NCBI GenBank assembly: GCA_944371905.1
Contig: CALVYA010000005.1
Span: forward strand, 7,728-71,727
Length of the DNA: 64,000 bases
Direction: 5' to 3'
Source: an uncultured Bacilli bacterium
GTDB lineage: Bacteria; Bacillota_I; Bacilli_A; RF39; UBA660
The notes below the pieces were generated by a model, which made no database searches, had not been told where the DNA came from, and saw only the letters and a list, made by a program, of their open reading frames with translations. Both the position numbers and the translations under genes were made by a program. This document shows positions 6,260-37,444 of the stretch, piece after piece. Position 1 is the stretch's first letter. The number at the start of each line of letters is the position of its first letter.

Positions 6260-6260
6260 A

Positions 6261-7121: not shown

Positions 7122-7189
7122 AATTTCCAATGAAATTTGTCGAATTTATGTTATAATAAAATTGTATCGACAATAAAAAGGAGGTAAAA

Positions 7190-10375: not shown

Positions 10376-10669
10376 ATGTTTAAATTGGTTTCTAAATTTA
10401 ATCCTTCAGGGGATCAACCAGAAGCGATTTATCAATTAGTACAAGGGCTAAAAAAAGGTAAAAGAGATCAAGTTTTATTGGGAGCTACAGGTACAGGTAA
10501 AACTTTTACTATTGCAAATGTGATCCAAGAAGTAAATAAACCAACATTAATATTGGCACACAATAAAACTTTAGCAGGGCAATTATACAGTGAATTAAAA
10601 GAACTATTTCCTGAAAATCGAGTAGAATATTTTGTTTCATATTATGATTTGTCATGTATTTATTGCTAA
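10376..10669 (+). pseudogene. uvrB: Displaced 5' stub of uvrB: codons 1-91, then 6 unrelated codons and a stop
   Basis: [15 protein letters not shown]...GATGTGKTF...[11 protein letters not shown], then LSCIYC and TAA. It is collinear with codons 1-91 of the complete uvrB at 25864. Good RBS (AAAGGAGG). Confidence 0.9.
10620..10649 (+). repeat. attL core candidate (end of uvrB homology)
   Basis: GAGTAGAATATTTTGT (10620-35) and TATTATGATT (10640-49) are identical to 26108-23 and 26128-37. Sequences diverge completely from 10650. Confidence 0.7.
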
Positions 10670-10748
10670 TTTAGTATTAAGATCATCAATTAAATGTTAC
10701 AAAACAGTATAATACAAGATCTATTAGAACTATATAAAAAAGATTGTT

Positions 10749-10781
10749 ATTTGTGACTTTTATTCGTGTAATATCGTGTAA
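10749..10781 (+). repeat. Left-end copy of a 33-nt repeat holding two TCGTGTAA motifs (candidate arm-type or regulator sites)
   Basis: ATTTGTGACTTTTATTCGTGTAATATCGTGTAA matches 25713-25745 at 29 of 33 positions (hand alignment). Confidence 0.6.
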
Positions 10782-11314
10782 TGATGTATCAACCCATTAG
10801 ATGATGTGTGTCTAAAAGTGAGAAATTAACGAGAACAAATGAAATGTATTTATTTAATAGAATCTATGTCTAAATTAATTTGTTTAATCAAAGTATTTTA
10901 AAATTGATTTTAAAGTATGTTAATAAAATTTCCGTGTATTATTAATGTTATGAAATAATATTAGGTTTTAATATGAACAGACAGCAATATAAGAACAAAT
11001 AGATACTTCAAACAATATAATATTCTTTGTGGTTTAGGAATTGGTGGTTAATTATTTAAAAAGTAGAAGTGAAGAGTCTACTAAGTATGAAAATATTAAA
11101 GTATAAAAAAATTTATAAAATTTATTTCTAGGTCTTGTCTTTTACTATAATAGCTGTTAAAATGTGAGTAATTAAAGGTTTTGCCTTTGATGGAATAATA
11201 TCATTTCGGTTGTTAAAAGAAATGGTAACATCTTTGATAATACACTACTAGGGAGCAAGTTCCTAGCGGGCTCTTATGTAAATATTGTACATACGACCTC
11301 GTTATTACTAACCA

Positions 11315-11407
11315 AAAACAATACTACTAATATCACTAATAAAAGAAAACAATACTACTAACATCACTATAACTAACACTACTAATACTACTAACACTAC
11401 TAATACA
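11315..11407 (+). repeat. Iteron-like direct repeats in an ACTAAY-rich tract
   Basis: 24-nt unit AAAACAATACTACTAAYATCACTA at 11315-38 and 11346-69 (23/24 identical, 31-nt period). 18-nt tandem unit ACTAACACTACTAATAC(T/A) at 11372-89 and 11390-407 (17/18). Confidence 0.6.
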
Positions 11408-11450
11408 AAAACTATCATTACACATACTAAAACTAAATATAAAGAATTAC

Positions 11451-11483
11451 AAAACAGGAGATGAAATATTCTCCTGTTTTATT
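11451..11483 (+). terminator. Strong rho-independent terminator closing the ORF-free left arm
   Basis: AAAACAGGAG-atgaaatatt-CTCCTGTTTT followed by ATT; 10-bp perfect stem. Confidence 0.7.
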
Positions 11484-11558
11484 ATGAACTAATTGAAAAT
11501 TCAGATTCAGTATTAGCAAATTTCCTATTGTTATACCATGTAAATGGGAGGATAAATT

Positions 11559-11864
11559 ATGAATGAAATTGAAACAATGAAAACAGAAGAAGAAATATCA
11601 CATAAGAAATTTCTTGCTTATTTAATTGCTGATATGATCTATATTCATTACAAACATTACGAAAATTCAAATTTTGAAAGTTACAACCAATTTTATCATA
11701 GTAGTATGCAATTTATCAATTATAACAAACAGGAGCAGGAAGAAATATATCAAAATGTTGACTCTATTCTTGAAGAAAAATATGATTTATTCTTTGCCCA
11801 CAATGAAAAAGATGAACCTATTTATTTAGTTGATATTTCAGGAAAGGAAGATGATGTATGTTGA
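11559..11864 (+). CDS. Hypothetical acidic protein (island)
   Basis: 101-aa ORF with a GGGAGG RBS and a 7-nt overlap with the downstream ssb. No recognisable motif. Confidence 0.6.
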   Translation: MNEIETMKTEEEISHKKFLAYLIADMIYIHYKHYENSNFESYNQFYHSSMQFINYNKQEQEEIYQNVDSILEEKYDLFFAHNEKDEPIYLVDISGKEDDVC

Positions 11865-12187
11865 ATCAAATTGTTTTAGTAGGTCGTTTAATTAAAGATC
11901 CAGAAGTAGTTACTATGGAGTCTGGTAAAAATATAAGTCATATAACTATAGCTATTCCTAGACCATTTAAGAATGTTGAAGGAGAATATGATACAGATTT
12001 TATTGATTGTGTATTATGGAATACAGTTGCTGAAAGTACTTCAGAGTATTGTAGAAAAGGAGACATTATAGGGGTTAAAGGTCGTGTTCAAAGTTGTATT
12101 GTTGAAGATGCAAAAGAAAAAGATTACAATAAAATTGAAATAGTTGCCGAAAGAGTTACATTCTTATCTAGTAAGAAGGAGGAATAA
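11858..12187 (+). CDS. ssb: Single-stranded DNA-binding protein, short form (OB fold only, no acidic tail)
   Basis: MLNQIVLVGRLIKDPE...TDFIDCVLWNTVAE...KGDIIGVKGRVQS is a typical SSB OB-fold signature. At 109 aa it lacks the usual Gly/Pro-rich linker and DDDIPF-type tip. Confidence 0.8.
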   Translation: MLNQIVLVGRLIKDPEVVTMESGKNISHITIAIPRPFKNVEGEYDTDFIDCVLWNTVAESTSEYCRKGDIIGVKGRVQSCIVEDAKEKDYNKIEIVAERVTFLSSKKEE

Positions 12188-12301
12188 TTGCATGGAGTTT
12201 GTCTACGCTGCTGAAGGTAGAAAAAAAATTTTAAAGCTAATGTAGTCGGTAATTATGGATGCGTATATGGGGACTATGTTAAGGAAGTTGAGGGATAGTC
12301 A

Positions 12302-12652
12302 ATGAATGGTGTTGAGAGATTAAAAAAATTAGCAGAAGGTCAAGAAGATACTTCTCTACTTAGGGTTATAGAATATCTAGTTAATATCGATGATATGGAT
12401 GAGATGTTTTTAAATGAAGATAAATCTTTAAAGTGTATGGTTGATTATATCAAAGGTGAAGCTAAAAAAATAGCAAAATATGGATATTGTTGGGTTGAAG
12501 ATACTACTGTTTATGAATGGGCTGCTAATTATTGGTCTAAAACAGATGACGAGTTAGGAATAAAGAAACCTGTAGTTACACCTACACAAAAGACAGAAAA
12601 GAAAGAGGTTGTTCCGGAAATTAAAGAGTATGGACAACTATCATTATTCTAG
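12302..12652 (+). CDS. PcfK-like protein (the family that includes AcrIIA9-type anti-CRISPRs); tentative
   Basis: 116 aa. ...KSLKCMVDYIKGEAKKIAKYGYCWVEDTTVYEWAANYW... resembles my recollection of the PcfK-like core, and the gene is followed immediately by a PcfJ-like gene. Confidence 0.45.
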   Translation: MNGVERLKKLAEGQEDTSLLRVIEYLVNIDDMDEMFLNEDKSLKCMVDYIKGEAKKIAKYGYCWVEDTTVYEWAANYWSKTDDELGIKKPVVTPTQKTEKKEVVPEIKEYGQLSLF

Positions 12653-12664
12653 GTGGTTATTCCT

Positions 12665-14095
12665 ATGGGTTATATCAAAAAAGAATTACAAGACCTTATA
12701 AAGTGTATGGACGAAACTTTTTTAATTGAATCTGGGGTGAGAAAGTGGATAAGGCAAAGTGTTTACCCTAAACATAATCTTATACTAAAATCAAAAAACG
12801 GTTATTATTGTACAAATTGTAAAAAATTATTTTACTCTACTGCTAGAGTTGGTGAATATGTTGAGTGTCCTAAATGTAAAGAAACATTACTTGTTAGGAT
12901 GAAGACATTACAATATCAAATATTCAAAGATGATTTTAGAATTATTAATTATATCAATGGGTACTTTGTACTAAGAGGGTTTGAGGTATCATCTACATAT
13001 AGCAGTAATAAAGTTACACATAGGTATCAAGAGTATCAGAGATTGGTTATAAGCAAGGATAAAATCTACTTGTTAGTATCAAATGTATTCAAAAACTATT
13101 TGGGATATACAATGGTTAATTATAATGAAAAACATATTCGGTGGAGGCTACTAGATGGTCAGTATAGATGGTATATGTCTAGAGGGAGTATCTACTGGGG
13201 AGAGCTAAAGAGAGACCTAGAGGGGTCACTTTATTACTACTGTCCTATAGAGAGAGGGGTATCACCATATAATAATAATCAAGATATAGAGACACTACTT
13301 CAGAGGGTACTTATCAATCCTATAGCATTTGAATTATTATCCAAGCTCAATCTTACTAATCTTGCTATTCATTGTGATAGATTTATTAATAGAGGTTCAT
13401 TTGAAAAAAGGTTTGGTGTTACTAAGAATTATCTGCCATTTATGGTAAAGCACAATATTACCTATGACGAATTAGAGGTATTACAGATAATTAAACATAA
13501 GAACATTAAGGTTATAAGGAAACTTGCAGAGTTAAATAGTTATAAAGAGTTAGCACAATATGTTGATTTAGAAAAAGCACTAGCAAATGGTCTTACTAAA
13601 AGTAATGAGCATATGTATCTGGACTACCTCTCCTTTGCAAAACGACTACATCTTAATATGAAAGATAAACGAGTGCTATACCCTAAAGATATCTTAAAAT
13701 CACATGATGAACTTATGCACCAAGTAGAAACTATTGAAAACCAAGAAATAATTGAAAAAATTAAGATAAGGTATGAAGAATTAAAAAACTTAAGTTATCA
13801 AGATGATAAGTACATAATCTATCCAGTTCCAACAATGAGTGATTTAATTAACGAGTCAGAAGTACAAAATATATGTATTAGAAGTTACAACGAGCGATAT
13901 GCAAATGGTAAAACAAACTTGTTCTTTATGAGAAATCTAAAGAATGTTACTAAACCACTTATAGCTATTGAAGTACGAGATAAAAAAATTGTACAAAGTC
14001 GTGGAAAAGGTAATAATGAACCTACTAGATTACAAAAAGCATTCATTACTAAGTGGGAAAATGAAGTGTTGAAAGGAAGTGTATTATATGCCTAG
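12665..14095 (+). CDS. PcfJ-like protein with an N-terminal zinc ribbon; tentative
   Basis: CTNCKK...(17 aa)...CPKCKE ribbon. The C-terminal ...LIAIEVRDKKIVQSRGKGNNEP... resembles the PcfJ-like signature. I prefer the ATG at 12665 after AGGTGG. Confidence 0.45.
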   Translation: MGYIKKELQDLIKCMDETFLIESGVRKWIRQSVYPKHNLILKSKNGYYCTNCKKLFYSTARVGEYVECPKCKETLLVRMKTLQYQIFKDDFRIINYINGYFVLRGFEVSSTYSSNKVTHRYQEYQRLVISKDKIYLLVSNVFKNYLGYTMVNYNEKHIRWRLLDGQYRWYMSRGSIYWGELKRDLEGSLYYYCPIERGVSPYNNNQDIETLLQRVLINPIAFELLSKLNLTNLAIHCDRFINRGSFEKRFGVTKNYLPFMVKHNITYDELEVLQIIKHKNIKVIRKLAELNSYKELAQYVDLEKALANGLTKSNEHMYLDYLSFAKRLHLNMKDKRVLYPKDILKSHDELMHQVETIENQEIIEKIKIRYEELKNLSYQDDKYIIYPVPTMSDLINESEVQNICIRSYNERYANGKTNLFFMRNLKNVTKPLIAIEVRDKKIVQSRGKGNNEPTRLQKAFITKWENEVLKGSVLYA

Positions 14096-14366
14096 ATTTC
14101 AAATAGGAAAACTTATTATAACAAATGGAATACAAAACATAATAAATGAAAACCCTAGTTTTCAATATGAGTTAGTTAATTATTTGAATAGATATTTAAA
14201 CGAAGATTGGGGAATTTTATGTGATAGTGATAAACAAATGAATGAAGCTGCAATAAAAACTAATGAAAGAATACTTGCTTCGTACGATACAACTAAAGGT
14301 AATATATATGTAATAACTGAAAGAGACAGGTCTTGCACTACAATTTTATTGAGGAATGAGTACTAA
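14088..14366 (+). CDS. Small conserved protein associated with mobile genetic elements, function unknown
   Basis: The signature ...EDWGILCDSDKQMNEAA...ERILASY...IYVITERDRSCTTILLRNEY resembles a small protein family I recall from plasmid and ICE leading regions. It overlaps the stop of the upstream gene. Confidence 0.5.
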   Translation: MPRFQIGKLIITNGIQNIINENPSFQYELVNYLNRYLNEDWGILCDSDKQMNEAAIKTNERILASYDTTKGNIYVITERDRSCTTILLRNEY

Positions 14367-14602
14367 TGAATTGCAAAAGTAAAACTATATACAAAACAGT
14401 GGCAGAAAATATAAAATATTACCGTGAAGCAAAAGGAATGACAATAAGTGACTTAGCTCAAAAAACAGGATATACTAAAGACTTTATTACTAAATTAGAA
14501 GCAGCTATATACACAAAAAAATGTACAATAACAGTTGTCTATAATATAGCAATTGCTCTTGGCATCAAGATAGACCTATTATTGATAGATGACAAAAAGT
14601 AA
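14366..14602 (+). CDS. XRE-family helix-turn-helix protein
   Basis: 78 aa; ...NIKYYREAKGMTISDLAQKTGYTKDFITKLE... is a classic HTH_3. TAATG overlap with the upstream ORF. Confidence 0.75.
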   Translation: MNCKSKTIYKTVAENIKYYREAKGMTISDLAQKTGYTKDFITKLEAAIYTKKCTITVVYNIAIALGIKIDLLLIDDKK

Positions 14603-14666
14603 ATTCAAAATCAGTATAGTGTTAGATTAGATTATGCTATAATTAAATTGAAAGGAGAACTTTTAT

Positions 14667-15167
14667 ATGAAAAACGAATTATATAAAGAAATTAGAAAAA
14701 TGAAATCAAATGATTTAATATGCGTAGCATCACGACCTGGTCAAGGGAAAACGACAACACTATTAGCGTTAGCGGATGATTTGCTAACAAATAATAAAAA
14801 CATTGTTTTTGTTACACTAGAATCATCAGCAGAATTATTGAAATCAAAAATTAAAATTAAAAACAATAAAAAATTAAATGTCGTTGATTTACCTAATTCA
14901 TCAATTGAAGAGTTATCTGATGTTGTTGAAAAAATCAAGAAAAAAACAAAGGTAGATTATGTTTTCGTTGATTATATTCAACTTCTAAACTGTGATGTTA
15001 AAGCAAGAGATGCTTTGTTGAAAGAATTGACAATATCATTAAATATACCTTTTGTAGTATCCTCACAACTACCTAGAAATTATAATGAAATGAATATTGG
15101 ATTAGAAAAACAAGAGTATACTAAAATATTCATAATCAAAGATTTTAATGAGTATGAAATTTTATAA
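14667..15167 (+). CDS. Mini DnaB-family ATPase (RecA-like C-terminal domain only, 166 aa)
   Basis: ASRPGQGKTTT (DnaB-type Walker A), VFVDYIQLL (Walker B region), VVSSQLPRN (the SQLSR-like motif). No N-terminal helicase domain. Confidence 0.6.
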   Translation: MKNELYKEIRKMKSNDLICVASRPGQGKTTTLLALADDLLTNNKNIVFVTLESSAELLKSKIKIKNNKKLNVVDLPNSSIEELSDVVEKIKKKTKVDYVFVDYIQLLNCDVKARDALLKELTISLNIPFVVSSQLPRNYNEMNIGLEKQEYTKIFIIKDFNEYEIL

Positions 15168-15246
15168 TATACTATGAATGTTATCTAAAAATCATCTAAT
15201 TCAATAGCTAAACAAAAACGTAATTAGTAGTTGATGATTACTTTAA

Positions 15247-15271
15247 GACATACCTTAATTGGTGTGTTTTT
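15247..15271 (+). terminator. Candidate terminator after the mini-DnaB gene
   Basis: GACATACC-ttaatt-GGTGTGTT (8 bp including two G-T pairs) followed by TTTT. Confidence 0.4.
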
Positions 15272-15337
15272 AGTTAGTTCAGTATCAGTATGTATTACAG
15301 TGTATTGGTAGTAAAATAAGTGTTGAGGTGGTTTATA

Positions 15338-16297
15338 GTGAATTTGAGTTCTATAATTGATAATAAACTGATGGTACATGACTATGAATTTATTATTAAG
15401 GATTGGTTATTAGATGCAGAAATATCTATCAATAGTAAGGATACATACGAATATGCGGTAAGAAGATATATAAAATATTTACAAGAAAAAGATATTACTT
15501 CAACTAGAAATACAGTTATAGAGTTTAAAAATGAAATGATAAATAGTTATTCAAATAGTACAGCATATATTCTCTTATCGGGTGTTAAAAGTTTTTATAG
15601 ATATTTGGCAAGAAAGTATAGTATACAAGATGTTGCTAAAGATGTTAAGTTACCAAAAATACCTAGGGGCTTTAAAAAAGATTGTTTAACTGTGGAACAG
15701 GTATCACAATTGCTTAATTCATTAAATGAAAATACTTTAGCACAGCTAAGAGATAAAGCTATGATTAATTTATTTATAAGATGTGGATTAAGGTGTTGTG
15801 AAATAATAAATGCAAATATTGAAGATATAGGAACTAAAGATGGTCAAAAGGTACTTTACATCAAAGGCAAAGGGCATACCGAAAAAGATGATTTTGTAGT
15901 ATTAACTACTGATATGTTAAGAATATTAGATAAATATTTGGTAAAGCGGAAAGAATACATAGATAAAAGTCCACTATTTGCTAGTGTTAGTAATAGATCT
16001 TATGGAAAAAGATTAGATAGTAGTACAGTTAGAGCAATTTGTAAAAGATATTTTAAAAATATAGGAATTAATACACCAAGAGTTTCAACACATAGTCTAC
16101 GACATACAGCAATTACTCTTTCTATTTTAGCAGGTGCTGGGATAATAGATGTAAGGGATTTTGCACGACATACTGATATTAATACTTCATTAAGGTATAT
16201 TCATAATCTTCAAAGGTTAGAAAATGCACCTGAATTAAAAATTGATGAATTTTTAAAGAAAAACAGTTCAAAAGAAAAGGATGAAATCATAAGTTGA
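15338..16297 (+). CDS. Tyrosine recombinase, XerC/XerD-like (no Arm domain)
   Basis: SAM-like N-terminal domain; catalytic region ...GLRCCEIINANIEDI..., HSLRHTAITL, ARHTDINTSLRYIH. I prefer the GTG at 15338 after GAGGTGG; the track start is 15320. Confidence 0.85.
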   Translation: MNLSSIIDNKLMVHDYEFIIKDWLLDAEISINSKDTYEYAVRRYIKYLQEKDITSTRNTVIEFKNEMINSYSNSTAYILLSGVKSFYRYLARKYSIQDVAKDVKLPKIPRGFKKDCLTVEQVSQLLNSLNENTLAQLRDKAMINLFIRCGLRCCEIINANIEDIGTKDGQKVLYIKGKGHTEKDDFVVLTTDMLRILDKYLVKRKEYIDKSPLFASVSNRSYGKRLDSSTVRAICKRYFKNIGINTPRVSTHSLRHTAITLSILAGAGIIDVRDFARHTDINTSLRYIHNLQRLENAPELKIDEFLKKNSSKEKDEIIS

Positions 16298-16365
16298 AAT
16301 CACCCTTTTATGCTACTAAAAACTAAGCCTAATTAACACTAATTATTATTATAGTGTATTAAAAT

Positions 16366-16755
16366 TTAATGATTATTTTTGTTTAATAATCCGTTTATAT
16401 ATCCAATAACATTTGCTTTGTCTTCTTTACTAAGTTCATTGTATTTAGTAACTAATAAATTATATTCTTCACTATCATATTTTAATAATTCATCAACTTT
16501 TGTTGATATATTAGTTCTGTCTAACAAATAATCTATATTGACATCAAAATAATCTGCAAGTTTTATTAATGAAACTAAACTTGGATGTTTTGTGTTATAC
16601 CTATATCCTTGAATTGATGAATCAGATAAATATAACTCCGTTCCTAATTTAGTATCATTTATATTTTTATTTTTCATTATGGTTTCAAGATTATTCATAG
16701 AAATATTTTTTTTAACTTGGTTATAATTATCTTTATTAGAATCAGAAAAACGCAT
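16366..16755 (-). CDS. XRE-family HTH regulator with a C-terminal extension (cI/ImmR-like or C-protein-like)
   Basis: ...LGTELYLSDSSIQGYRYNTKHPSLVSLIKLADYFDVNIDYLLDRT.... Strong GGGAGGTG RBS. Divergent from the 16901 operon. Confidence 0.75.
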   Translation of the reverse strand: MRFSDSNKDNYNQVKKNISMNNLETIMKNKNINDTKLGTELYLSDSSIQGYRYNTKHPSLVSLIKLADYFDVNIDYLLDRTNISTKVDELLKYDSEEYNLLVTKYNELSKEDKANVIGYINGLLNKNNH

Positions 16756-16770
16756 TATAATACACCTCCC

Positions 16771-16879
16771 AAGTGGCTTTAGTAAAAATATTATTCCACA
16801 ATATGGTTATATAAATACGCCACTATATGAGAAGTTAATTTGAAAATACCACTACAAAGAGTATAAATTATGATATAAT
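16771..16879. promoter_or_regulatory. Divergent control region: extended -10 promoter for the 16901 operon plus repeated GCCACT/CCAC(T/A)A boxes
   Basis: TGATATAAT at 16871-79. CCAC(A/T)A boxes at 16796, 16820 and 16849, and an inverted AGTGGC at 16772-77. Confidence 0.4.
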
Positions 16880-16900
16880 AGATTTAAGGTGGTGAAACTT

Positions 16901-17323
16901 ATGCATGTAAGAATAATTCCTATGTCGTTATATGATGAAACTTTTGTAGGTAAATGTATTGAGGAAATACAAAAAGACTTCTTTAAAGATTATTTAATTA
17001 ATGTTAGTAAAGGTTGGTATTATTATGGAAAAAGTGGCTTAGAAGCAAATTCTGGTGATTTATTATTATTTCAAATGAATAATCAGGTAATTGCCTCTGC
17101 TATATTAGAAAATGTTATACAATTTACTAAACCTACTATTGATGGTAATACTGGTGCTTTAATACTTGATAGAAGAACGATCAAAGTTTTTCCCCCAATT
17201 AAAAAAGAAGAACTATCTTTATTTATTAAAAAGTTTATATCTTTTAATCAAGTAAAGCAAAAGTTTGACGTTAAAGATGTAGACTTTCCTTCTTTGGAAA
17301 AGAGGATGAAGGAAAATGATTAA
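16901..17323 (+). CDS. Hypothetical 140-aa protein; possible PUA-like (EVE/ASCH-type) small beta-barrel (weak call)
   Basis: ...GDLLLFQMNNQVIASAILENV... resembles the central strand pair of PUA-like reader domains. AAGGTGGTGA RBS, and an 8-nt overlap with the downstream nuclease gene. Confidence 0.3.
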   Translation: MHVRIIPMSLYDETFVGKCIEEIQKDFFKDYLINVSKGWYYYGKSGLEANSGDLLLFQMNNQVIASAILENVIQFTKPTIDGNTGALILDRRTIKVFPPIKKEELSLFIKKFISFNQVKQKFDVKDVDFPSLEKRMKEND

Positions 17324-17963
17324 AATCAAGTTCAATCCTATCAATGATCGCATTATTGATGAAATAATTAAGGAAAAAGAAAGCGTTAATTTTGATAAAA
17401 AATTAATTAAAGATGATGAAAATTTAAGTGGAAGTTTTAATAAGTTGGTTGGAAATTTGACTGCTATGACTTTAAGAAAATATATATCTAACATAATAAA
17501 TTATCATGGATTAAATTATAAAGTTTCTAATTCTAATGCATTTGTTAAAGGATGTCCTATTGAGTGGGATTTAATTATATTAAAAAGTAGTGCTGAAGAT
17601 ATAAATAATACTAATGTTTTTGATGCTAGAGATTGTATATGCTTATTAGAATTTAAAACAAGCGGTTTGATGCCTAATCAATTTAAAGATATTAATAAAA
17701 CATTTAATACTCAATTTAGTCATTTGTATGCTTTGAGAAAAATTGCAAAAAGAAATATTCCTTTTGGATATGTAACATTTGCAGAAAGTATTGAATACTA
17801 TGATAAAACTTTAAAATATTTTGATAACATGAATGGATTAAATAATACTGCGTTTGCATTTTTAGATTATCAAGAATTAGCCCTTAATGATGAGAAAAAA
17901 TATATTGATGTATGTAATGATTTTGAAAGATATTTGTTCGATTTATTAAATCAAAGTAAATAG
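17316..17963 (+). CDS. Putative PD-(D/E)xK-fold nuclease (restriction-endonuclease-like)
   Basis: ...GCPIEWDLIILKSS...(about 20 aa)...CICLLEFKTSG gives a D...E-x-K arrangement on hydrophobic strands. No cognate methyltransferase is present in the island. Confidence 0.45.
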   Translation: MIKIKFNPINDRIIDEIIKEKESVNFDKKLIKDDENLSGSFNKLVGNLTAMTLRKYISNIINYHGLNYKVSNSNAFVKGCPIEWDLIILKSSAEDINNTNVFDARDCICLLEFKTSGLMPNQFKDINKTFNTQFSHLYALRKIAKRNIPFGYVTFAESIEYYDKTLKYFDNMNGLNNTAFAFLDYQELALNDEKKYIDVCNDFERYLFDLLNQSK

Positions 17964-17995
17964 TTAATAAAAGGTTAAGGTGATGATAAATATTT

Positions 17996-19033: not shown

Positions 19034-19044
19034 AAAGCGATAGA

Positions 19045-20130: not shown

Positions 20131-20263
20131 ATATTATCCACCTGATTTCATCTGATAATTTCTTTTTATGATTATAACACAAAACGATATATAATGGAAC
20201 AACAGAAGCAGAAAAAGGCCTGAAAGATTTCAATTCTACTTCTAAAAAGAAAGGAAAATAAAT

Positions 20264-21121
20264 ATGAAAGATAAACAAAGATATTTTTTTACGGTTCATG
20301 ATGAATTATTCTTTGATTTAATTGTTCCTGATGAATCATTAAAAACAAAAGAAAAAAAAGCGAGGGTTGCACTTACAAATAAAACACAGATGTTTACCGT
20401 TCATGAATTGATATTGTGGACTATATTGGTGGATTTTAAATTGAAGAACCCAAGCAATTGTTTTGCAATATCATTAAGTTATATTCATAAAAAATATAGA
20501 GAAAAGAGAACTGGAAAAACAGAAGTTATGAGTAAATCAGACCTAGATGCATATATGAATGCATTAAATGGTTTACAAAGAAAAAGAATAAATCTTAAAA
20601 TTAGTAATACAAGAGTACGTTATCATCTAAATCATAAAGAAATTACAAATGGAAGAATATTTAAAATCACAAATATTACAGGTAAGCAAAACGGGGATTT
20701 AATATTTGAATATACATTGGGAGAGTATGGTGAAATAATATCAAAAAGTAAAAGATATTCAGATATGCTTCCTATAGACATATTAAAGATTCCATATAAG
20801 CAAAATATGAAACTTTATATTGCAATGTATATAGCTAGATTGGTTTTTATAAACAAAAAAAGAAATTTAAACGAATTTATTATTACAACTGAAAGTATTA
20901 TGAAAAAAATAAGATTGCATGATAGCAACGGAATTGATATCGGTAAAAATCTCTATGAACTTACTAAGGAAAACAATATTACTAAATATTCAAAATTAAA
21001 AATATTCAATAATTATTTAAATGATGTATTAGAGATGCTTAAGAAAAATGGGACTATATATAATTATGATACGTCATTAGAGGATGGTAGAAAATGTCAT
21101 ATTGATTTAAAAATTAAGTAA
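20264..21121 (+). CDS. Hypothetical protein; by position a candidate replication initiator
   Basis: 285-aa basic protein directly upstream of the DnaB-like gene. AAAGGAAA RBS. No motif recognised. Confidence 0.3.
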   Translation: MKDKQRYFFTVHDELFFDLIVPDESLKTKEKKARVALTNKTQMFTVHELILWTILVDFKLKNPSNCFAISLSYIHKKYREKRTGKTEVMSKSDLDAYMNALNGLQRKRINLKISNTRVRYHLNHKEITNGRIFKITNITGKQNGDLIFEYTLGEYGEIISKSKRYSDMLPIDILKIPYKQNMKLYIAMYIARLVFINKKRNLNEFIITTESIMKKIRLHDSNGIDIGKNLYELTKENNITKYSKLKIFNNYLNDVLEMLKKNGTIYNYDTSLEDGRKCHIDLKIK

Positions 21122-21197
21122 TTACATTAAAAAAAATTCTACTTAAAAAAGTAGATTATTAAAAAGTTCTTATAAATAAACGAAAAAAGGAGGGAGT

Positions 21198-21257
21198 ATG
21201 GGGGCTAATATATTAATATATAATTCATTAGAAAAAGTTAGCCCTCACAGAATATGA
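21198..21257 (+). CDS. 19-aa upstream ORF translationally coupled (ATGA) to the DnaB-like gene
   Basis: A strong AAGGAGGG RBS lies 5 nt upstream of ATG 21198. It encodes MGANILIYNSLEKVSPHRI. Its TGA (21255-57) overlaps ATG 21254, which has no SD of its own. Confidence 0.4.
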   Translation: MGANILIYNSLEKVSPHRI

Positions 21258-22840
21258 AAAATGAAGATAAAAACGTATTGGTAAAAAACATTATATATAG
21301 TAGAATTCTTCTAGCTGTTTCTTTAATAAAAAGTGAAAATAAAGAAGAATATTTAAAAAAAATATTAAACATAAAATTTTTAACGGATATTGAGAAATAT
21401 AAATGGGAATGTTTGTATAAGTGTTTCACACGTACTGGTAATATTTTAAAAGCAGATATTGTTAGAATTTTTAATTTAGACCAATTAAATATTGAATTTA
21501 TAAATAAATTATTATCTTGTGATGATAATGATGAGATTGATAGTTATTTTAAAATTTATGAAAATGTTATGAAATATACTGATTTATTTTATACATTAGG
21601 TAATCTAAGGAAGAAATTATTTAACGAAGGAATATTTGATGGGAATGAAATCATACAAAAAATGCATAACATAACAAATGCAAAATCAGTAAATGTAGAT
21701 ATTTTAACTAATTTGGAAAATATTTACGATGAAGCTATTGATATGACTAAAATATCAACTTGTATTAAACAAATTGATGATCTTAATGCTGAATTTAGAA
21801 AAGGAACTGTTAATGCAGTAATGGGATATACTGGTTCATATAAAACATTGTACTGTACCAATGTTTGTTATGGGGCTATAAAAAAAGGAATTAATACCTG
21901 TTATGTATCATTGGAAATAAGTACAAGTGAGATGTATTATAATTTCCTATCTAGATATTCAAATGAGGCAATATTTGATAGAAAAATATGTCATACGGAT
22001 ATAAAATTTAAGGAATTATCAGATGATGATAAAAACTATTTGTTTCATACTATAGTACCATCATTTAAAGAGGAATTATCAAAACATTTAGTTGTTATTG
22101 ATGAAACTAACTTTAGTTCAAACACATTGACAACGTTTGATGATATTTTTAGTACAGTTGAGACAAATTTTATTAAAACTACTGGAAGAGGCGTTGATTT
22201 AGTAGTTATAGATCATTTAAATCTACTTAAATTTAGTGATTCTAGTGGTATGAATGACTATAGCAAGGTTAATCATTGGATGTCATATTTTAGAAGAAAT
22301 TGTATGAATTTTCTAAAAAAACATAAACAAGTGTGTATTTTAGTTGCAGTTCAATGCAGTAGAGATGGTTATGAAAGAGCCAAAAGAAATGGAGGAACTT
22401 ACTCATTAACAGGCGTGGCAGAAGCTAACGAAGTTGAAAGAGCATCAGAAAATGTTCTTGCTATCTATTCTGATTGTAGTTTAAAAGAACATTTAAAAGC
22501 AAAAATACAAATAATAAAAGGAAGAAATTGTGGTGAAACGAGTACTCCACTAATGATATCAGTAAATCCTAAATACTATATTGTTTCAGATAATGATGAA
22601 GATGAAGAAAATTTAGATAATGACTTGACAGATGTAACAGCTATTAATAAAAAAGTAAATTTAAACGATAAAAAGGCAGACGAAACAACTATTATTCAAA
22701 ATGAAGATAGTAATATTAATTTTAGCACATTAATGTCTATGGATAACTCAATGAGTAGTACTAATTTGAATATTCCACCTGAGAAAGCTGAAATTTTGGA
22801 AAAACTTGGAGTGCATTTTCTAAAAAATCAGAATCAGTAA
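21254..22840 (+). CDS. DnaB-family replicative-helicase-like ATPase with a non-canonical N-terminal region
   Basis: GYTGSYKT (deviant Walker A), VSLEISTSEMYYNFLSRY, LVVIDHLNLLK, and VAVQCSRDGYERAKRNGG are collinear with DnaB C-terminal domain motifs. Asp/Asn-rich tail. Confidence 0.65.
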   Translation: MKNEDKNVLVKNIIYSRILLAVSLIKSENKEEYLKKILNIKFLTDIEKYKWECLYKCFTRTGNILKADIVRIFNLDQLNIEFINKLLSCDDNDEIDSYFKIYENVMKYTDLFYTLGNLRKKLFNEGIFDGNEIIQKMHNITNAKSVNVDILTNLENIYDEAIDMTKISTCIKQIDDLNAEFRKGTVNAVMGYTGSYKTLYCTNVCYGAIKKGINTCYVSLEISTSEMYYNFLSRYSNEAIFDRKICHTDIKFKELSDDDKNYLFHTIVPSFKEELSKHLVVIDETNFSSNTLTTFDDIFSTVETNFIKTTGRGVDLVVIDHLNLLKFSDSSGMNDYSKVNHWMSYFRRNCMNFLKKHKQVCILVAVQCSRDGYERAKRNGGTYSLTGVAEANEVERASENVLAIYSDCSLKEHLKAKIQIIKGRNCGETSTPLMISVNPKYYIVSDNDEDEENLDNDLTDVTAINKKVNLNDKKADETTIIQNEDSNINFSTLMSMDNSMSSTNLNIPPEKAEILEKLGVHFLKNQNQ

Positions 22841-22883
22841 ATTTAATCAAAATAAAATAGTAGAATAAAGGAGGAAAAATTTT

Positions 22884-23078
22884 ATGAATAACATTAATAT
22901 GGTATATTCTCCAAAAGAAATTCAAAAAATGTTGGGAATTGGAAAAGAAAGCGTATATGAATTTCTTGAAGAAGTTTATAAAAACAAGAAACCATTTATG
23001 GTTATAAAGATTGGTAAATTATATAAAATACCAAAAGAGCCATTTAATCGTTGGTTAAATGGAGAAACAAATGCCTAA
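22884..23078 (+). CDS. Excisionase-family (MerR-like) HTH DNA-binding protein
   Basis: 64 aa; ...SPKEIQKMLGIGKESVYEFLE...IKIGKLYKIPKEPFNRWL.... AAGGAGG RBS. Directly upstream of the integrases. Confidence 0.75.
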   Translation: MNNINMVYSPKEIQKMLGIGKESVYEFLEEVYKNKKPFMVIKIGKLYKIPKEPFNRWLNGETNA

Positions 23079-23106
23079 ATAGTACATAAAGTTAGGAGGT
23101 AGTACT

Positions 23107-24285
23107 ATGAGTGTAAATAAAATTGGAAATGCTTTCTTTGAAAGAGGTTCGTGGTACCATCGTACCAAAACTTTATGTGATAATGGTACGACAAAATATG
23201 GTAAACTTGGAGGATTTACTACCCCAGAAGAAGCTGAAACAAGTTATAAAAAACATGAAGAAGAATATCAAAAACTTAAGCGTGAATATTGGCTAATTAA
23301 GGAAAATCAAGAAATAATGTTTAAAGATTATATTGTATACTGGTTTGAAAATATGTATTTAGAAAGAACTGAAACTACAACTCAAAGTTTAGGAGCATAT
23401 GCAATATATAATTTAATTATTCCAAATATTGAATATGATATTAAATTAAGGCAAGTTACTACTTCATATTTAGATCAAATTATAAATGCTTGTTCTAAAA
23501 TGACAAAATCTAGTGGTGAATTAAGTAGATTTATAATCTATTTATCTCTAAGGGATGCTGTATCTAATGGTTTCATTAGTTTTAACCCTGCTAAAGATAC
23601 TAAAGCATATCCTAGACCTAAACCAAATATAAGAATATTAAGTGAAAATGATATAAAAAAATTACTGGATAATGCACAATATACAAATTGGTATTTAGAG
23701 TTACTGTTGGGATTATTTTGTGGTTTAAGAAAAGGTGAAATATTAGGACTTAAAGTATCTGATTTTAATATTGAAAATAGAACATTGAGTATATCTAGGC
23801 AACTAGTAAACGATGTTAAATTGGAAAAAGGAACTAATAAAGTTATATCAAGTAAAATTGTTGAAAGACCACCAAAAACTGAAAATAGTTATAGAACTAT
23901 TAGAGTTCCTGATATAATTATCGATGAGTATAAAAAAAGGCTTCAGCTAATAAATAAATATAAATTACAATATAAGGAAAAGTATATAGATAACAAATAT
24001 ATTTCTTGTACTAAATATGGAAAAAACCATGCTTTAAGTTCCCTTAATGGGATTTTAACAAAATTATGTAAGAAAGCAAGTATTCCAAAAGTTACTGTGC
24101 ATAGTTTAAGACACACATTTGCCACAATTTTGTTGGAGCAAGGTGTATCGTTAGAACAGATATCTGCTTTACTAGGACATAGTTCTATACATACAACTTA
24201 TGAATATTATTGTGAAGTTATTTCAGAAAAAGAAAAAATATTATCTTATATTAATGATGTTTTTAGCGTCGAAAAGGAGTTATAG
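23107..24285 (+). CDS. Tyrosine integrase with an N-terminal Arm (AP2-like) DNA-binding domain
   Basis: N-terminus ...FERGSWYHRTKT...GKLGGFTTPEEAETSY.... Catalytic motifs GLRKGEILGLKVSD, HSLRHTFAT, LGHSSIHTTYEYY. Confidence 0.9.
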   Translation: MSVNKIGNAFFERGSWYHRTKTLCDNGTTKYGKLGGFTTPEEAETSYKKHEEEYQKLKREYWLIKENQEIMFKDYIVYWFENMYLERTETTTQSLGAYAIYNLIIPNIEYDIKLRQVTTSYLDQIINACSKMTKSSGELSRFIIYLSLRDAVSNGFISFNPAKDTKAYPRPKPNIRILSENDIKKLLDNAQYTNWYLELLLGLFCGLRKGEILGLKVSDFNIENRTLSISRQLVNDVKLEKGTNKVISSKIVERPPKTENSYRTIRVPDIIIDEYKKRLQLINKYKLQYKEKYIDNKYISCTKYGKNHALSSLNGILTKLCKKASIPKVTVHSLRHTFATILLEQGVSLEQISALLGHSSIHTTYEYYCEVISEKEKILSYINDVFSVEKEL

Positions 24286-24287
24286 AT

Positions 24288-25577
24288 ATGAGTTTAATAT
24301 TAAGAAATGATACTTATATAAATTGGAAAATATATTCAGTTACTAGAATAAAAGGAAAATATGGTTTTAGAATAAAATTAGATTATAATAACGAAACAAT
24401 AGTTCAACAGAAATCAGGATTTAGTACAAAAAAAATGGCAGAAGAAAGAAGAAATACCGTTATTGCTGAATTAACTAATCATTCATATGTAATGTATTCT
24501 AATATCAAAATATCTGAATTTTATGACTATTGGTTAAATGAAGTTATGAAGCCCAAGATAGAATATAATAGTTACATGAGTTATAGAAATGCAATACATA
24601 ACTATATTATTAAAGAATATGGTAATTTAAAAATGACTACATTAAATCAATCTCATATTCAAAAGTTATATAATAGTGTTACTAAAAAGCATGTATCTAT
24701 TGCTAGGCTTGTTAAAACTATAATGAATAATAGTCTTGATTATGCAAAATCTATGAATATAGTTAGTGTTAATGTTGCTACTGATGTAGGATTGCCTAAA
24801 TGTGTCAAAAAGAAGGAATATAGAAAATTAAATATTGATAGTTCTAAAACTTATAATATAGAGCAAGTCAAACAATTACTGCAAGTTAGCAAGAATACTC
24901 CAATTTATTTAGAAATTATGTTTGCAGTATTAATGGGGATGAGAATTAGTGAAATAAATGCAATTAAATATAGTGACATTGATTATGTAAACAAAAGGTT
25001 ACATGCATCAATACAATTAGGAAAAGATTTAAGAATAGATCCTACCAACTTAAAGAAGAAAACCATTACAAAACAGGAAAAGAAGATGAAAACTAAAAAT
25101 AGTAAGCGATGGTTAGATATTCCTGATATATTATTTAATGCAATAATTGAACAAAGAGTAATATATGATAAAAACAAACGAAGAAGAATAAATGATAAGC
25201 ATAACCCATTTGTTGATGAAAATTATATTTGTTGTTCTACCTATGGACATTCAAGAAGCCGTGGCTTTCATTATAACTATTATAAAGAAATTATTAAGAG
25301 AGCCAATCTACCATATATACGATTTCACGATTTAAGACATACTTATACTACAATACTAGTTAAAGCTAATTTTAGTGTTAAAGCAATTTCACAAATTTTA
25401 GGGCATTCAAACGAAATAATTACTGTTGATGTTTATACTGATAAACTTCAAATAATTCAAGATTGTTTAGAATTGTTAAACCCGTATATAGAAAAAATAC
25501 TGCCGTCACGAAAAAATACAAAATTTATAGATTGTACAAAAGTACAACTAAATGATTATTTTTCTAAATTTGTTTAA
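24288..25577 (+). CDS. Second tyrosine integrase with an Arm-type N-terminus (tandem partner)
   Basis: N-terminus ...KGKYGFRIKLDYNNE...SGFSTKKMAEERRN.... Catalytic motifs GMRISEINAIKYSD, HDLRHTYTT, LGHSNEIITVDVYTD. Lies 2 nt after the previous stop. Confidence 0.9.
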   Translation: MSLILRNDTYINWKIYSVTRIKGKYGFRIKLDYNNETIVQQKSGFSTKKMAEERRNTVIAELTNHSYVMYSNIKISEFYDYWLNEVMKPKIEYNSYMSYRNAIHNYIIKEYGNLKMTTLNQSHIQKLYNSVTKKHVSIARLVKTIMNNSLDYAKSMNIVSVNVATDVGLPKCVKKKEYRKLNIDSSKTYNIEQVKQLLQVSKNTPIYLEIMFAVLMGMRISEINAIKYSDIDYVNKRLHASIQLGKDLRIDPTNLKKKTITKQEKKMKTKNSKRWLDIPDILFNAIIEQRVIYDKNKRRRINDKHNPFVDENYICCSTYGHSRSRGFHYNYYKEIIKRANLPYIRFHDLRHTYTTILVKANFSVKAISQILGHSNEIITVDVYTDKLQIIQDCLELLNPYIEKILPSRKNTKFIDCTKVQLNDYFSKFV

Positions 25578-25582
25578 ATATC

Positions 25583-25616
25583 GGGGAAGCATAAATGTGT
25601 TTCCTTGTTTTGTTAT
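25583..25616 (+). terminator. Candidate terminator after the integrase pair
   Basis: GGAAGC-ataaatgt-GTTTCC (with one G-T pair) followed by TTGTTTTGTT. Confidence 0.4.
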
Positions 25617-25712
25617 ACGAAAAATGGTAAAATATATATTGTTTGGATGACCTGTTTAATAAGATTTAGTTCTGACTAGTCTAATTGAATGTTAGAATGT
25701 CTTATTTAATAG

Positions 25713-25745
25713 ATTTGTGACTTTTGCTCGTGTAAATTCGTGTAA
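25713..25745 (+). repeat. Right-end copy of the 33-nt repeat with two TCGTGTAA motifs
   Basis: ATTTGTGACTTTTGCTCGTGTAAATTCGTGTAA; 29/33 identical to 10749-10781. Confidence 0.6.
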
Positions 25746-25784
25746 GCCCAGTATTAGCCATTAAAATAAAGTTTTGTTAATATG

Positions 25785-25821
25785 AATTACACGAATTTTA
25801 TTAAATAATTGCACGAATTTT
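25785..25821 (+). repeat. Two inverted copies of the same motif (AATTRCACGAATTTT) just upstream of the element-borne uvrB start
   Basis: AATTACACGAATTTT at 25785-99 and AATTGCACGAATTTT at 25807-21. Both contain the reverse complement of TTCGTG(T/C)AA. Confidence 0.6.
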
Positions 25822-25863
25822 TAGGTTAATACTAATCATAATAATAGAAAGGATGTGACAGCA

Positions 25864-27813
25864 ATGTTTGAATTAGTATCTAAATATAAACCAAGTGGTG
25901 ATCAACCACAGGCAATAAATGAATTGGTTAAAGGTGTTGAAAATGGCAAGAAATATCAAGTTTTACTAGGAGCAACAGGTACAGGTAAAACATTTACGGT
26001 TGCTAATGTTATTGCTAAAGTTAATAAACCTACTCTAGTTTTAGCTCACAATAAAACTTTAGCAGGACAACTTTATTCTGAACTTAAAGAGTTGTTTCCT
26101 GATAATAGAGTAGAATATTTTGTCTCTTATTATGATTATTATCAACCGGAAGCTTATGTTCCTTCTACTGATACTTATATAGAAAAAGATTCTTCTATTA
26201 ATGATGAAATAGATGAATTACGTCATTCGGCTACTAGTGCTTTATTGTCACGAGATGATGTGATTGTAGTAGCTAGTGTTTCTTGTATATACGGTATTGG
26301 TGAAGTAGAAGAATATGAGAATAAAATGTTAACTTTAAATGTAGGAGATACTATTGATCGTGATCAAGTTTTGATGAAATTGATTGATATGTTATATGAA
26401 AGGAATGATATAGATTTTAAACGTGGTACTTTTAGAGTAAAAGGAGACGTTTTAGAAATTATTCCGGCAAGTGATAGAACTAATGGAATTAGAGTAGAGT
26501 TTTTTGGCGATGAAATTGACAGAATTAGTGAAATAGATCCTTTAACAGGTACTATAAAAACTAATAAGAAAACTATTTCAATATTTCCGGCTAGTCATTT
26601 TGTAACTAGTGAAGAAAAATTAAAAGTAGCGTTGAAGACAATCAAAGAAGAATTGCAAGATAGATTGCAATATTTTAAAGAAAATAATAAGCTATTAGAG
26701 TATCAGAGATTAGAACAACGTACTAATTATGATTTGGAAATGTTAGAAGAAACAGGATTTTGTACAGGAGTAGAAAACTATTCTCGTCATTTAGCAGGTA
26801 GAAAGGAAGGAGAAACTCCTACTACTCTTATGGATTTTTTTCCTAAGGATTATTTATTAGTAATAGATGAATCCCATGTTACTATTCCGCAAGTAAGAGG
26901 AATGTATAATGGAGATAGAGCAAGAAAAATGAATTTAGTAGAGTATGGATTTAGATTACCTAGTGCATTAGATAATAGACCATTAAAATTTGACGAATTT
27001 GAAAAGAAAATTAATCAAGTAATATATGTTTCTGCAACTCCAGGTGACTATGAACTAGAAAAAGTTAATAATCATTACGTGGAACAAATAATTAGACCAA
27101 CAGGATTATTAGATCCAATAATAGAAGTGAGAAAAAGTGAAGGACAAATTGATGATTTAGTTGGCGAAATTAAAGTAAGAATGAAAAATAACGAAAGGGT
27201 TTTAATCACTACATTAACGATTCGTATGGCAGAAGAATTAACTAATTATTTGAAGGATTTAGATATTAAGGTAGCATATCTTCATACTGAAGTAAAAACA
27301 TTAGAAAGAATGCAAATAATTAGAGATTTGCGTTTGGGAAAATATGACTGTATCGTAGGAATCAATTTATTAAGAGAAGGAATTGATATACCAGAAGTTA
27401 GTTTAATTGCAATATTAGATGCTGATAAAGAAGGTTTCTTACGTAGTAGTCGCAGTTTAATTCAGACTATAGGACGTTGTGCTAGAAATGCTCATGGGAA
27501 ATGTATTATGTATGGGGATAAAATTACAGATTCTATGGATTATGCTATTAAAGAGACAATGCGTCGTCGCCAAATTCAAGAAGAATATAATAGAGTTCAC
27601 AATATTATTCCTAAAACTATTTCTAAAGAAATACGAGAAGTTATAAGTAATGTTGATGAAAGTAAGGATAAGAAAATTAAAACAACTAAAAAAGAATTGG
27701 TTAAAACAATAGATAAAATAGAGCAAGAAATGAAAGATGCCGCTAAAAATCTTGATTTTGAAAGAGCAATGGAATTACGTGATATTTTATTTGAAATGAA
27801 GAGTGGAATGTAA
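25864..27813 (+). CDS. uvrB: Excinuclease ABC subunit B, full length; codons 1-91 appear to be element-derived
   Basis: 649 aa: [18 protein letters not shown], beta-hairpin region YYQPEAY, C-terminal UVR motif ...[11 protein letters not shown].... I prefer the ATG at 25864 ([15 protein letters not shown]). Confidence 0.93.
26108..26137 (+). repeat. attR core candidate
   Basis: GAGTAGAATATTTTGT and TATTATGATT are identical to the attL blocks. Confidence 0.7.
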
Positions 27814-37421: not shown

Positions 37422-37444
37422 TAGAATATAATATATAATACAAA

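Follow-up and report, generated by a model that had tools for sequence, protein, structure and literature searches.

A 15.5-kb insert in uvrB carries a second 5' end of the gene

The window analysed here is a 64,000-nt stretch of contig CALVYA010000005.1 (positions 7,728 to 71,727; GenBank assembly GCA_944371905.1) from an uncultured Bacilli bacterium of the UBA660 lineage, a gut Firmicute, and the subject of this work is an insert that divides its uvrB, a gene of nucleotide excision repair (NER). By repeat search and alignment, 10376-10649 and 25864-26137 form the single long direct repeat at this locus, 274 nt long with 77% nucleotide identity, the two same-strand copies being 15,488 nt apart from start to start. 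Each copy opens with an ATG and codes for UvrB residues 1-91. The left copy departs from uvrB after ...VEYFVSYYD, reads LSCIYC and stops at a TAA (10667-10669); the right copy continues as a 649-aa UvrB with all UvrB Pfam domains (ResIII/DEAD, UvrB_inter, Helicase_C, UvrB and UVR). The Walker A motif GATGTGKT and the beta-hairpin motif are intact in this fused protein, which aligns without gaps to the Bacillus subtilis UvrB (2D7D). The copies are unlike at 17 of the 91 residues, with a synonymous change only in 35 more codons, and they share two identical blocks near the end of the repeat (10620-10635/26108-26123 and 10640-10649/26128-26137).

Just left of the right copy lie the gene of an excisionase-like protein (HTH_17 by Pfam) and two tyrosine integrase genes (both Phage_integrase by Pfam), referred to below as integrase 1 and integrase 2. 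A preliminary description of the locus had reported the paired uvrB copies with their differing ends, the number of residue differences beside many synonymous ones, the blocks of highest identity near the repeat end and the recombination genes; all of these were recovered here, the block coordinates to the base. The layout is that of a gene-end restoring integrative element: the repeat flanks the island, the right copy reads in frame into an intact UvrB, and a tyrosine integrase gene stands at the island end beside the putative attachment (att) site, 286 nt from the right repeat.

An empty uvrB site identifies the native copy

A hypothetical protein composed of left-type residues 1-91 and residues 92-649 of the window UvrB has an exact match in a public protein collection (P0001), which was located on five metagenome contigs. 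On four of these (L081-L084) the M23 peptidase gene lies directly 5' of uvrB, a radical-SAM gene lies 3' of it and the island is absent. The contig that extends furthest, L081, has the gene order ftsE-ftsX-M23-uvrB-radical SAM-HAD-uvrA and agrees with the window at every one of 10,274 nt left of 10649 and at all but one of 11,676 nt right of 26138. This island-free, near-isogenic contig has the left-type 5' end on the same gene body; the native 5' end is therefore the one displaced into the left stub, and the right copy arrived with the insert. Occupied and empty uvrB alleles exist in otherwise identical genomes.

The preliminary description had predicted that an island-free uvrB would have left-type codons 1-91 joined directly to 26138 onward, and had assigned the left stub to the host and the right copy to the element. 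P0001 and L081 are exactly the predicted gene, and the assignment holds: it is the left type that island-free relatives carry, and in other hosts (see below) the stubs are host-specific and the right-type region is constant.

Could the right-hand uvrB instead be wholly native, the element having inserted 5' of it with a stub captured from an earlier host? The closest species leave room for this, since their uvrB genes are about equally similar to both 5' types (80-87% and 81-86%), and their comparison was uninformative as an arbiter of the native copy; the exact look-up of the chimeric protein settled the matter. Island-free isogenic contigs carry the left-type end on the same gene body, so the empty site refutes a native right copy, and elsewhere it is the right-type copy with its upstream region that stays identical from host to host, not the stub. 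The probability left to this alternative is negligible. In the closest species L002 and L003 the M23 peptidase gene adjoins uvrB. In the closest sequenced species, L001, 4.4 kb of ordinary-looking genes (5600-9960; by eye short-chain dehydrogenase-like, sirtuin-like and sortase-like, integrase absent) stand between the two, and M23-uvrB adjacency is therefore not universal.

An artefact of assembly or binning, joining the uvrB alleles of two strains, would have to be considered for any metagenome-type assembly, the more so as the contigs L094 and L195 break inside the repeat. However, the attL and attR junctions recur, with the full element, on many independently assembled contigs from different samples, studies and assemblers, two copies at 77% identity are not collapsible repeats, and the empty site was found independently. 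This explanation can for all practical purposes be set aside. We conclude with high confidence that a site-specific integrative element of 15,488 bp, 10650-26137, sits in the 5' part of uvrB, with the left copy native and the right one element-borne.

Comparison of native and element-borne codons 1-91 (NG86) gave 0.127 nonsynonymous (dN) and 1.54 synonymous (dS) substitutions per site, and a dN/dS of 0.083. Because dN/dS is low with dS saturated, the codon comparison shows the element-borne segment as one that has long been maintained as working coding sequence, under purifying selection relative to the native copy.

The same element occupies uvrB in other hosts

A protein identical to integrase 2 is present in 55 blocks of the contig collection, and 21 carrying contigs were read. 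Elements with this same integrase 2 occupy uvrB in at least five further host backgrounds, as judged by differing stubs and flanking genes. At least three gene neighbourhoods are found 3' of uvrB (that of the window, that of L085/L088 and that of L087), and further backgrounds are distinguished on the attL side by host-specific stubs or other upstream genes (L100/L098, L192, L193, L197 and L199). In every copy examined, the 286-nt stretch from integrase 2 to the uvrB start is 100% identical to that of the window, and the coding copy is identical to that of the window up to nt 112-260 of 274, depending on the contig. The stubs of the other hosts are approximately 76% identical to the window stub. 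Because the stubs are host-specific and the right-hand region is constant, the stub does not travel with the element, whereas the right-hand copy does. In all six host backgrounds seen, the attL junction falls at the same base, with ...TATTATGATT followed by TGTCATG. These copies show that the element is mobile among several hosts. In one of them, that of L193, an IS110-family transposase gene (10545-11798) separates the HTH gene from that of the small ATPase; the element is otherwise identical.

The crossover lies in the last bases of the repeat

In a three-way alignment, the empty site (attB) equals attL through TATTATGATT and equals attR beyond it. attB and attL read T at the equivalent of 26124 and A at that of 26127, positions at which attR keeps the element-type C and T; attL is host-type at the equivalent 10636 and 10639 and reads as element sequence from 10650 on. 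The exchange for this insertion lies within the last 10 nt of the repeat, TATTATGATT. The crossover had previously been placed in the last ~30 nt; this placement stands in a narrower form, with the exact point of exchange uncertain: candidates are the first bases of TATTATGATT and a heterology-tolerant overlap that spans 26124-26130.

We propose that in the attP of the element the exchange point lies between the 286 upstream nt with uvrB codons 1-91 and an arm of ~435 nt, and that this attP recombined with the host uvrB in the last bases of codons 87-91, GTn TCn TAT TAT GAT (VSYYD). One product, attL, keeps the native promoter and native codons 1-91 as what is now a 97-codon dead-end open reading frame (ORF). 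The other, attR, fuses the element upstream region and codons 1-91 in frame to host codons 92-649, giving a chimeric UvrB with 17 substitutions.

The octamer TCGTGTAA has seven exact sites in the window, five of them in the two arms. In the left arm it forms a direct pair 10 nt apart (10764-10781) inside a 33-nt repeat (10749-10781), which is shared with 25713-25745 at 88% identity. In the right arm two direct sites (25728-25745) are followed by an inverted one (25787-25794) and by an inverted one with one mismatch (25809-25816). Analogous TTCGTCC/GGACGAA repeats, direct and inverted, occur at the same place in L032, a distant member of the family. We infer that these repeats are arm-type integrase-binding sites in a lambda-type attP layout.

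Conservation within the first 600 nt of uvrB, compared among 81 species, peaks in the 17-nt window of nt 268-284, across which the junction falls. Because the junction is in so conserved a stretch, one element is able to enter several hosts. Residue n of the window UvrB corresponds to residue n+3 of the Bacillus protein, and we take the tyrosines of VSYYD to be the known beta-hairpin tyrosines of UvrB, at the base of the hairpin. In a distant branch of the family (47-49% integrase-2 identity), several loci have the integrase pair, then uvrB codons 2-88, a stop directly after ...VEYFVS, and unrelated DNA; the junction there is GAATATTTTGTnTCCTA followed by G, 8 nt left of that of the window. 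Across the family the junction thus holds one place within uvrB, the VSYYD codons.

The stubs of codons 2-88 were seen in L146 (10090-14039) and L157 (6804-10753), and also in L140, L142, L148 and L125. L146 and L157 each have another stub of this kind ~3.7 kb further on. Double and lone stubs may be tandem accretions of uvrB-targeting elements (one apparently lacking integrases) or attP forms.

Two adjacent integrases define a uvrB-targeting family

Integrase 2 has 576 homologues at E<=1e-10. The family survey covered 86 loci, 80 of them from a metagenome scan with an integrase-2 alignment and the others found earlier. The uvrB N-terminus lies 281-833 nt (median 389) 3' of integrase 2 in 64 of the 66 loci with enough downstream sequence, and a paralogue of integrase 1 lies directly 5' of integrase 2 in 68 of the 70 with enough upstream sequence. 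Order and adjacency of the pair are kept down to ~46% integrase-2 identity. All three distant homologues that were sampled on long contigs (50-60% identity) have a small ORF, an integrase-1-like gene, an integrase-2-like gene, a spacer of ~270-300 nt and uvrB; Pfam identifies the small ORF as HTH_17 in one of the three. In L032, a Clostridia metagenome-assembled genome, the integrase-2 homologue is likewise directly 5' of uvrB, and an excisionase homologue is at the same position in the family members checked (Pfam; tblastn at 10 loci). These genes represent an undescribed integrase family with uvrB as its single target and at least several hundred members in gut Firmicutes. In three loci (L107 2884-3432, L108 547-930 and L110 2919-3293) a PemK-type toxin gene occurs shortly 5' of the excisionase and integrase genes; the window's element has none.

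R219, H347, R350, H373 and Y383 of integrase 2 are invariant. Integrases 1 and 2 are 27% identical over their full length, with similar N-terminal regions and with the R, HxxR, H and Y residues aligned, and their genes are separated by 2 nt (23107-24285 and 24288-25577). Their nearest solved relatives are the Firmicute integrase 3NKH and Tn1549 Int, to whose structures both have weak but significant similarity in the case of Tn1549. On this conservation, the two integrases are a conserved pair and not a coincidence. The fact that two complete paralogues stay adjacent suggests that both, being catalytically competent by sequence, work jointly at the att sites. The HTH_17 protein would be their excision factor.

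It may be, though, that integrase 2 alone carries out integration at uvrB, and that integrase 1 resolves arrays or multimers, has a regulatory function or serves a second target site. One tyrosine integrase suffices for most described integrative elements (PMC5704250), and a third tyrosine recombinase is encoded at 15320-16297, so that recombinases with separate roles do occur in this element. An identity of 27% between the integrases also leaves room for divided functions. Against this stand the constancy of the pair, adjacent and in the same order in 68 of 70 loci, the 2-nt gap between the genes, and the retention of all catalytic residues and of similar N-terminal regions by both proteins. 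Such co-inheritance is expected of an obligate two-subunit recombinase, as in the two-tyrosine-recombinase systems XerC/XerD and Tn554 TnpA/TnpB. We consider a single acting integrase unlikely, though not far-fetched, and favour joint action of the pair.

Expression signals of the stub and the restored gene

The native uvrB has a promoter-like site, TTTCCA-16-TATAAT (10248-10275; promoter scan), and an AGGAGG ribosome-binding site. This promoter would now drive the 97-codon stub only. The scan flagged no plus-strand terminator between the stub and a hairpin at 11449-11482, and that hairpin was reported on the minus strand.

On the element side, a terminator-like hairpin (25582-25607) follows integrase 2 and an extended -10 promoter-like site, TTGTTT-17-TGgTAAAAT, was found by a custom script at 25605-25633. 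Of 70 distinct integrase-uvrB spacers, 63 contain a comparable motif (shuffled sequences: mean 9.3, maximum 16), and in 52 of the 70 it lies 195-300 nt 5' of the uvrB start; the 70 spacers are related by descent, so that these counts are not independent. At the equivalent place L032 has TAGACA-17-TATATT with a TG. That the motif is conserved down to ~46% integrase identity supports its being functional. Compared with the native AGGAGG, the element has a weaker ribosome-binding site, an AGGA ~10 nt 5' of the ATG. We infer that uvrB in lysogens is transcribed from the extended -10 promoter of the element. The earlier claim that the element supplies the start signals of uvrB thus stands for the 91 codons and the upstream region, and for the promoter it is made plausible by the position-conserved motif. 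No LexA (Cheo) box was found 5' of either uvrB start, and matches across the window are at chance level.

Mosaic copies, the missing circle and general recombination

Several results count against the interpretation given above, or narrow it. (i) Exact 38-nt pattern scans of the JGI metagenome and IMG/VR collections recovered no excised circular attP junction, and terminal overlaps were seen on no contig; the polymorphism of presence and absence is therefore the sole evidence of current excision activity. (ii) The promoter candidate of the window has 8 of 12 hexamer matches plus the TG, and the standard scan missed it; like the ribosome-binding and arm sites, it was assigned from sequence. (iii) It is co-inheritance from which a requirement for both integrases would have to be argued. 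(iv) The switch from element to locus-specific sequence depends on the host. L087 and L089 differ from the window at the equivalents of 26124 and 26130, L085 (11576-11850) departs from about 26059 on, over the last ~80 nt, and L088 (4433-4707) has an internal patch of ~55 nt in the element-borne copy. L192 and L085 belong to the same contig, the sole genome with both ends, and the variable part there fits neither the element consensus nor its own stub; because of this, a single fixed crossover cannot explain everything.

Two further candidates were rejected. The element-length contigs L094 (15,402 nt) and L195 (15,600 nt) are not circles; their ends are assembly breaks inside the repeat. The variable part of L085 and L088 could not be traced to a sampled host stub, none of which fits better than the element consensus, and it is left as an unexplained mosaic.

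The mosaics of L085 and L088 and the host-dependent switch are what one would look for if integration and excision were mainly general homologous recombination over the 274-bp segment, a Campbell-type single crossover, and not the work of an integrase at a fixed core. The homology also far exceeds the 12-54 bp repeats of streptococcal integrative and conjugative elements (ICEs; PMC4701971). Yet the attL junction is at the same base in six host backgrounds, both products put the exchange in the last 10 nt despite many longer identical runs in the preceding 264 nt, and the excisionase gene, the integrase pair and the arm repeats are conserved beside the site in the family. DNA of 77% identity is a poor substrate for RecA. 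We hold general recombination to be very improbable as the primary event; homologous exchange is a likelier source of the secondary mosaics.

Site-specific integration, our preferred reading, can accommodate the variable bases in two ways. Among otherwise identical element copies (the window, L087, L085 and L088) the varying positions are the third-codon positions 26124, 26127, 26130 and 26133. By analogy with Tn916-type and CTnDOT elements, an overlap of about 26124-26130 may tolerate mismatches and change with each passage, and occasional homologous exchange inside the 274-bp repeat may produce the mosaics.

Anatomy and class of the element

The features of the element and of the interrupted gene are collected in Table 1.

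Table 1. Features of the uvrB-targeting element and of the divided uvrB gene, in window coordinates.
Feature	Position	Strand	Basis
Native uvrB upstream region	10248-10375	+	Promoter scan; identical to region 5' of uninterrupted uvrB in L081
Displaced native uvrB codons 1-91 (with Walker A), six element-encoded codons (LSCIYC) and TAA; attL side	10376-10669	+	Identical to intact uvrB of L081-L084
attL copy of the 10-nt identity block TATTATGATT	10640-10649	+	Three-way attB/attL/attR alignment
Left arm (P' arm of attP), specific to the uvrB-targeting module	10650-11084	+	Sister elements share sequence only from ~11085
Exchangeable left module	11085-15290	+	Pfam, PHROGs
101-aa ORF	within 11085-15290	+	
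Repeat-rich non-coding stretch	11135-11482		
Single-stranded DNA-binding protein (SSB)	11858-12187	+	Pfam/PHROGs
PcfK-like protein	12302-12652	+	Pfam/PHROGs
PcfJ-like protein	12653-14095	+	Pfam/PHROGs
95-aa ORF	within 11085-15290	+	
Helix-turn-helix (HTH) protein	14366-14602	+	Pfam/PHROGs
Small DnaB_C-type ATPase	14667-15167	+	Pfam/PHROGs
Internal Xer-like tyrosine recombinase, without arm-binding N-terminal domain	15320-16297	+	Pfam Phage_integrase and SAM_1; NCBIfam Xer-type similarity below cut-off
Divergent HTH_3 (Cro/C1-type) regulator	16366-16755	-	Pfam
Five ORFs of 144, 215, 345, 361 (minus strand) and 285 aa	16889-21121	mixed	No family match
DnaB-like replicative helicase	21254-22840	+	Pfam DnaB_C; PHROG 19
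Excisionase-like protein, HTH_17	22884-23078	+	Pfam above cut-off; NCBIfam 'excise' domain below cut-off
Integrase 1, 392 aa, complete catalytic motif set	23107-24285	+	Pfam Phage_integrase
Integrase 2, 429 aa, adjoins attR, marker of the uvrB-targeting family	24288-25577	+	Pfam Phage_integrase
Element-borne uvrB upstream region (P arm)	25578-25863	+	100% identical across element copies
Element-borne uvrB codons 1-91 including Walker A GATGTGKT, restores frame	25864-26137	+	Travels with element into other hosts
attR copy of TATTATGATT	26128-26137	+	
Host-derived uvrB remainder, codons 92-649	26138-27813	+	11,676 nt match L081, one mismatch

The left module is 98-99% identical to that of three elements (L092, L093 and L096) that have a different recombination module and no uvrB att module, and modules have evidently been swapped, to judge by this similarity, between elements with different targets. 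In L092 and L093 a 299-aa PBP_dimer/Transpeptidase ORF stands directly 5' of this module and has the look of a further truncated host gene; the L096 contig stops earlier. The non-coding stretch near the left end begins with a promoter-like TTGTCT-17-TAAAAT with a TG, continues for ~300 nt without an ORF, with ACTAAC/ACTACT repeats of periods 9, 18 and 21, and is closed by the strong hairpin at 11449-11482. It has no Rfam match and could be a small RNA, replication iterons or an origin of transfer (oriT). At gathering threshold, Rfam gives a single match in the window, a ribosomal protein L10 leader (37441-37571), which fits the secE-nusG-rplK-rplA-rplJ neighbourhood 3' of uvrA.

Where the window has the Xer-like recombinase, the sister elements have a 201-aa serine resolvase, and the Xer-like protein is probably a resolvase or module-exchange enzyme and not the uvrB integrase. 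The third recombinase could also have meant a tandem pair of two uvrB-targeting elements, a reading that was rejected: there is no third uvrB copy, the recombinase is Xer-like, and the sisters have the resolvase in its place. The HTH_3 regulator is likely the element repressor, and the HTH_17 protein is presumed to be the recombination directionality factor. The five ORFs of 16889-21121, without a match in Pfam, PHROGs, PADLOC or NCBIfam, are putative cargo or replication accessory genes.

No type IV secretion ATPase, coupling protein or relaxase was found among the ORFs of 10650-25577 (Pfam, PHROGs, NCBIfam), and the PcfJ-like and PcfK-like proteins are the sole conjugative-plasmid-associated families in the element. 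The relaxase negative (Pfam, PHROGs) leaves room for a novel relaxase or oriT in the five family-less ORFs and the non-coding stretch. Structural or packaging PHROGs are likewise absent from the element, IMG/VR contains no relatives of integrase 2, and the best integrase-2 match among 50,697 phage genomes is 31% identical. The layout with repressor and helicase would be compatible with a phage satellite without defining one. Because conjugation and virion genes were not found, a helper would be needed for cell-to-cell transfer. We regard the island as probably a replicative integrative element, helper-dependent for transfer, whether an integrative and mobilizable element (IME), a satellite or of another class; once excised, it would replicate using its own DnaB-like helicase and SSB.

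Comparison with known systems

Integration into gene 5' ends is already known, though rare, and the mechanism proposed here is textbook in outline and involves no new principle. Of 73 streptococcal ICEs, 7 are integrated into the 5' end of a housekeeping gene (ftsK, rbgA or ebfC). They are flanked by repeats of 12-54 bp and are reported to leave the N-terminus unchanged, the promoter being sometimes replaced (PMC4701971; PMC5704250). Like these ICEs and IMEs, the uvrB element targets the conserved 5' end of a housekeeping gene, has the gene end in its flanking repeat and bears its integrase gene beside the restored end. Unlike the ICEs, it has a repeat of 274 bp at 77% identity plus 286 upstream nt and replaces 91 codons with 17 substitutions, giving a chimeric protein; it also has two paralogous integrases, and neither conjugation nor mobilisation genes were found in it. 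The searchable literature yielded no report of uvrB as an integration target, only unrelated mentions.

With elements of tRNA genes and other gene 3' ends, and with prophages of the lambda type, the uvrB element shares a copy of the gene end in attP, arm repeats on both sides and a small HTH excisionase gene 5' of the integrase. Unlike 3'-end elements, it must bring transcription and translation start signals and takes over the regulation of the host gene. SpyCI of Streptococcus pyogenes lies at the 5' end of mutL; according to the summary in PMC4701971, expression of mutL and three downstream genes is disrupted when it is integrated and restored when it is excised. On that summary, SpyCI too is a small non-conjugative island at the start of a DNA-repair gene whose expression it determines, but the uvrB element brings a new start for its target, which appears to stay switched on.

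Two tyrosine recombinases in one element have been described for the Vibrio integrative element Tn6283 (PMC5991714) and ICEMh1 (PMC6861422), and actinophages with two tyrosine integrases are known (PMC9584220, PMC4982277). Together with XerC/XerD and Tn554, these resemble the uvrB pair in having two such genes in one module, which suggests a two-subunit enzyme or a division of labour. No specific relationship of the uvrB pair to these systems was found, its NCBIfam matches being generic and below cut-off, and the pair aligns over its full length including the N-terminal regions, whereas XerC/XerD are core-type recombinases only. Tn916/Tn1549 Int and CTnDOT IntDOT tolerate mismatches in the overlap (PMC2817482; PDB 6EMZ family), and the third-codon variation at 26124-26133 would fit a similarly mismatch-tolerant overlap that changes with the host. 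Tn916 and CTnDOT have low target specificity; the uvrB family, in contrast, is strictly specific for one uvrB site.

What the element may mean for its hosts

This locus is a clean natural case of replacement that affects both the regulatory region of a core DNA-repair gene and the 91 N-terminal, ATP-binding residues of its product and yet leaves the gene intact. For annotation it means that uvrB 'fragments' beside integrases are att sites and not pseudogenes. The uvrB 5' end can be foreign and mosaic in these organisms, which matters for uvrB phylogeny and strain typing. Aiming at the most conserved nucleotides of a gene may be how tyrosine integrases reach a broad range of hosts, and the family might yield site-specific integration tools for Firmicutes.

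A more far-reaching proposal, improbable when taken as a whole, is that the family uses an obligate heteromeric lambda-type integrase pair with a mismatch-tolerant overlap, by which it enters many Firmicute uvrB genes, and that the element sets the level and regulation of NER. If this were true, with an element promoter and integrase-binding repeats between the integrase genes and uvrB, the element and not the host would regulate nucleotide excision repair, occupancy of the arm sites by integrase and excisionase could couple uvrB expression to the excision state, and occasional homologous exchange would gradually rewrite the N-terminal domain of the host UvrB. Occupied and empty alleles in the same background make effects on uvrB expression and on UV and mitomycin tolerance directly testable.

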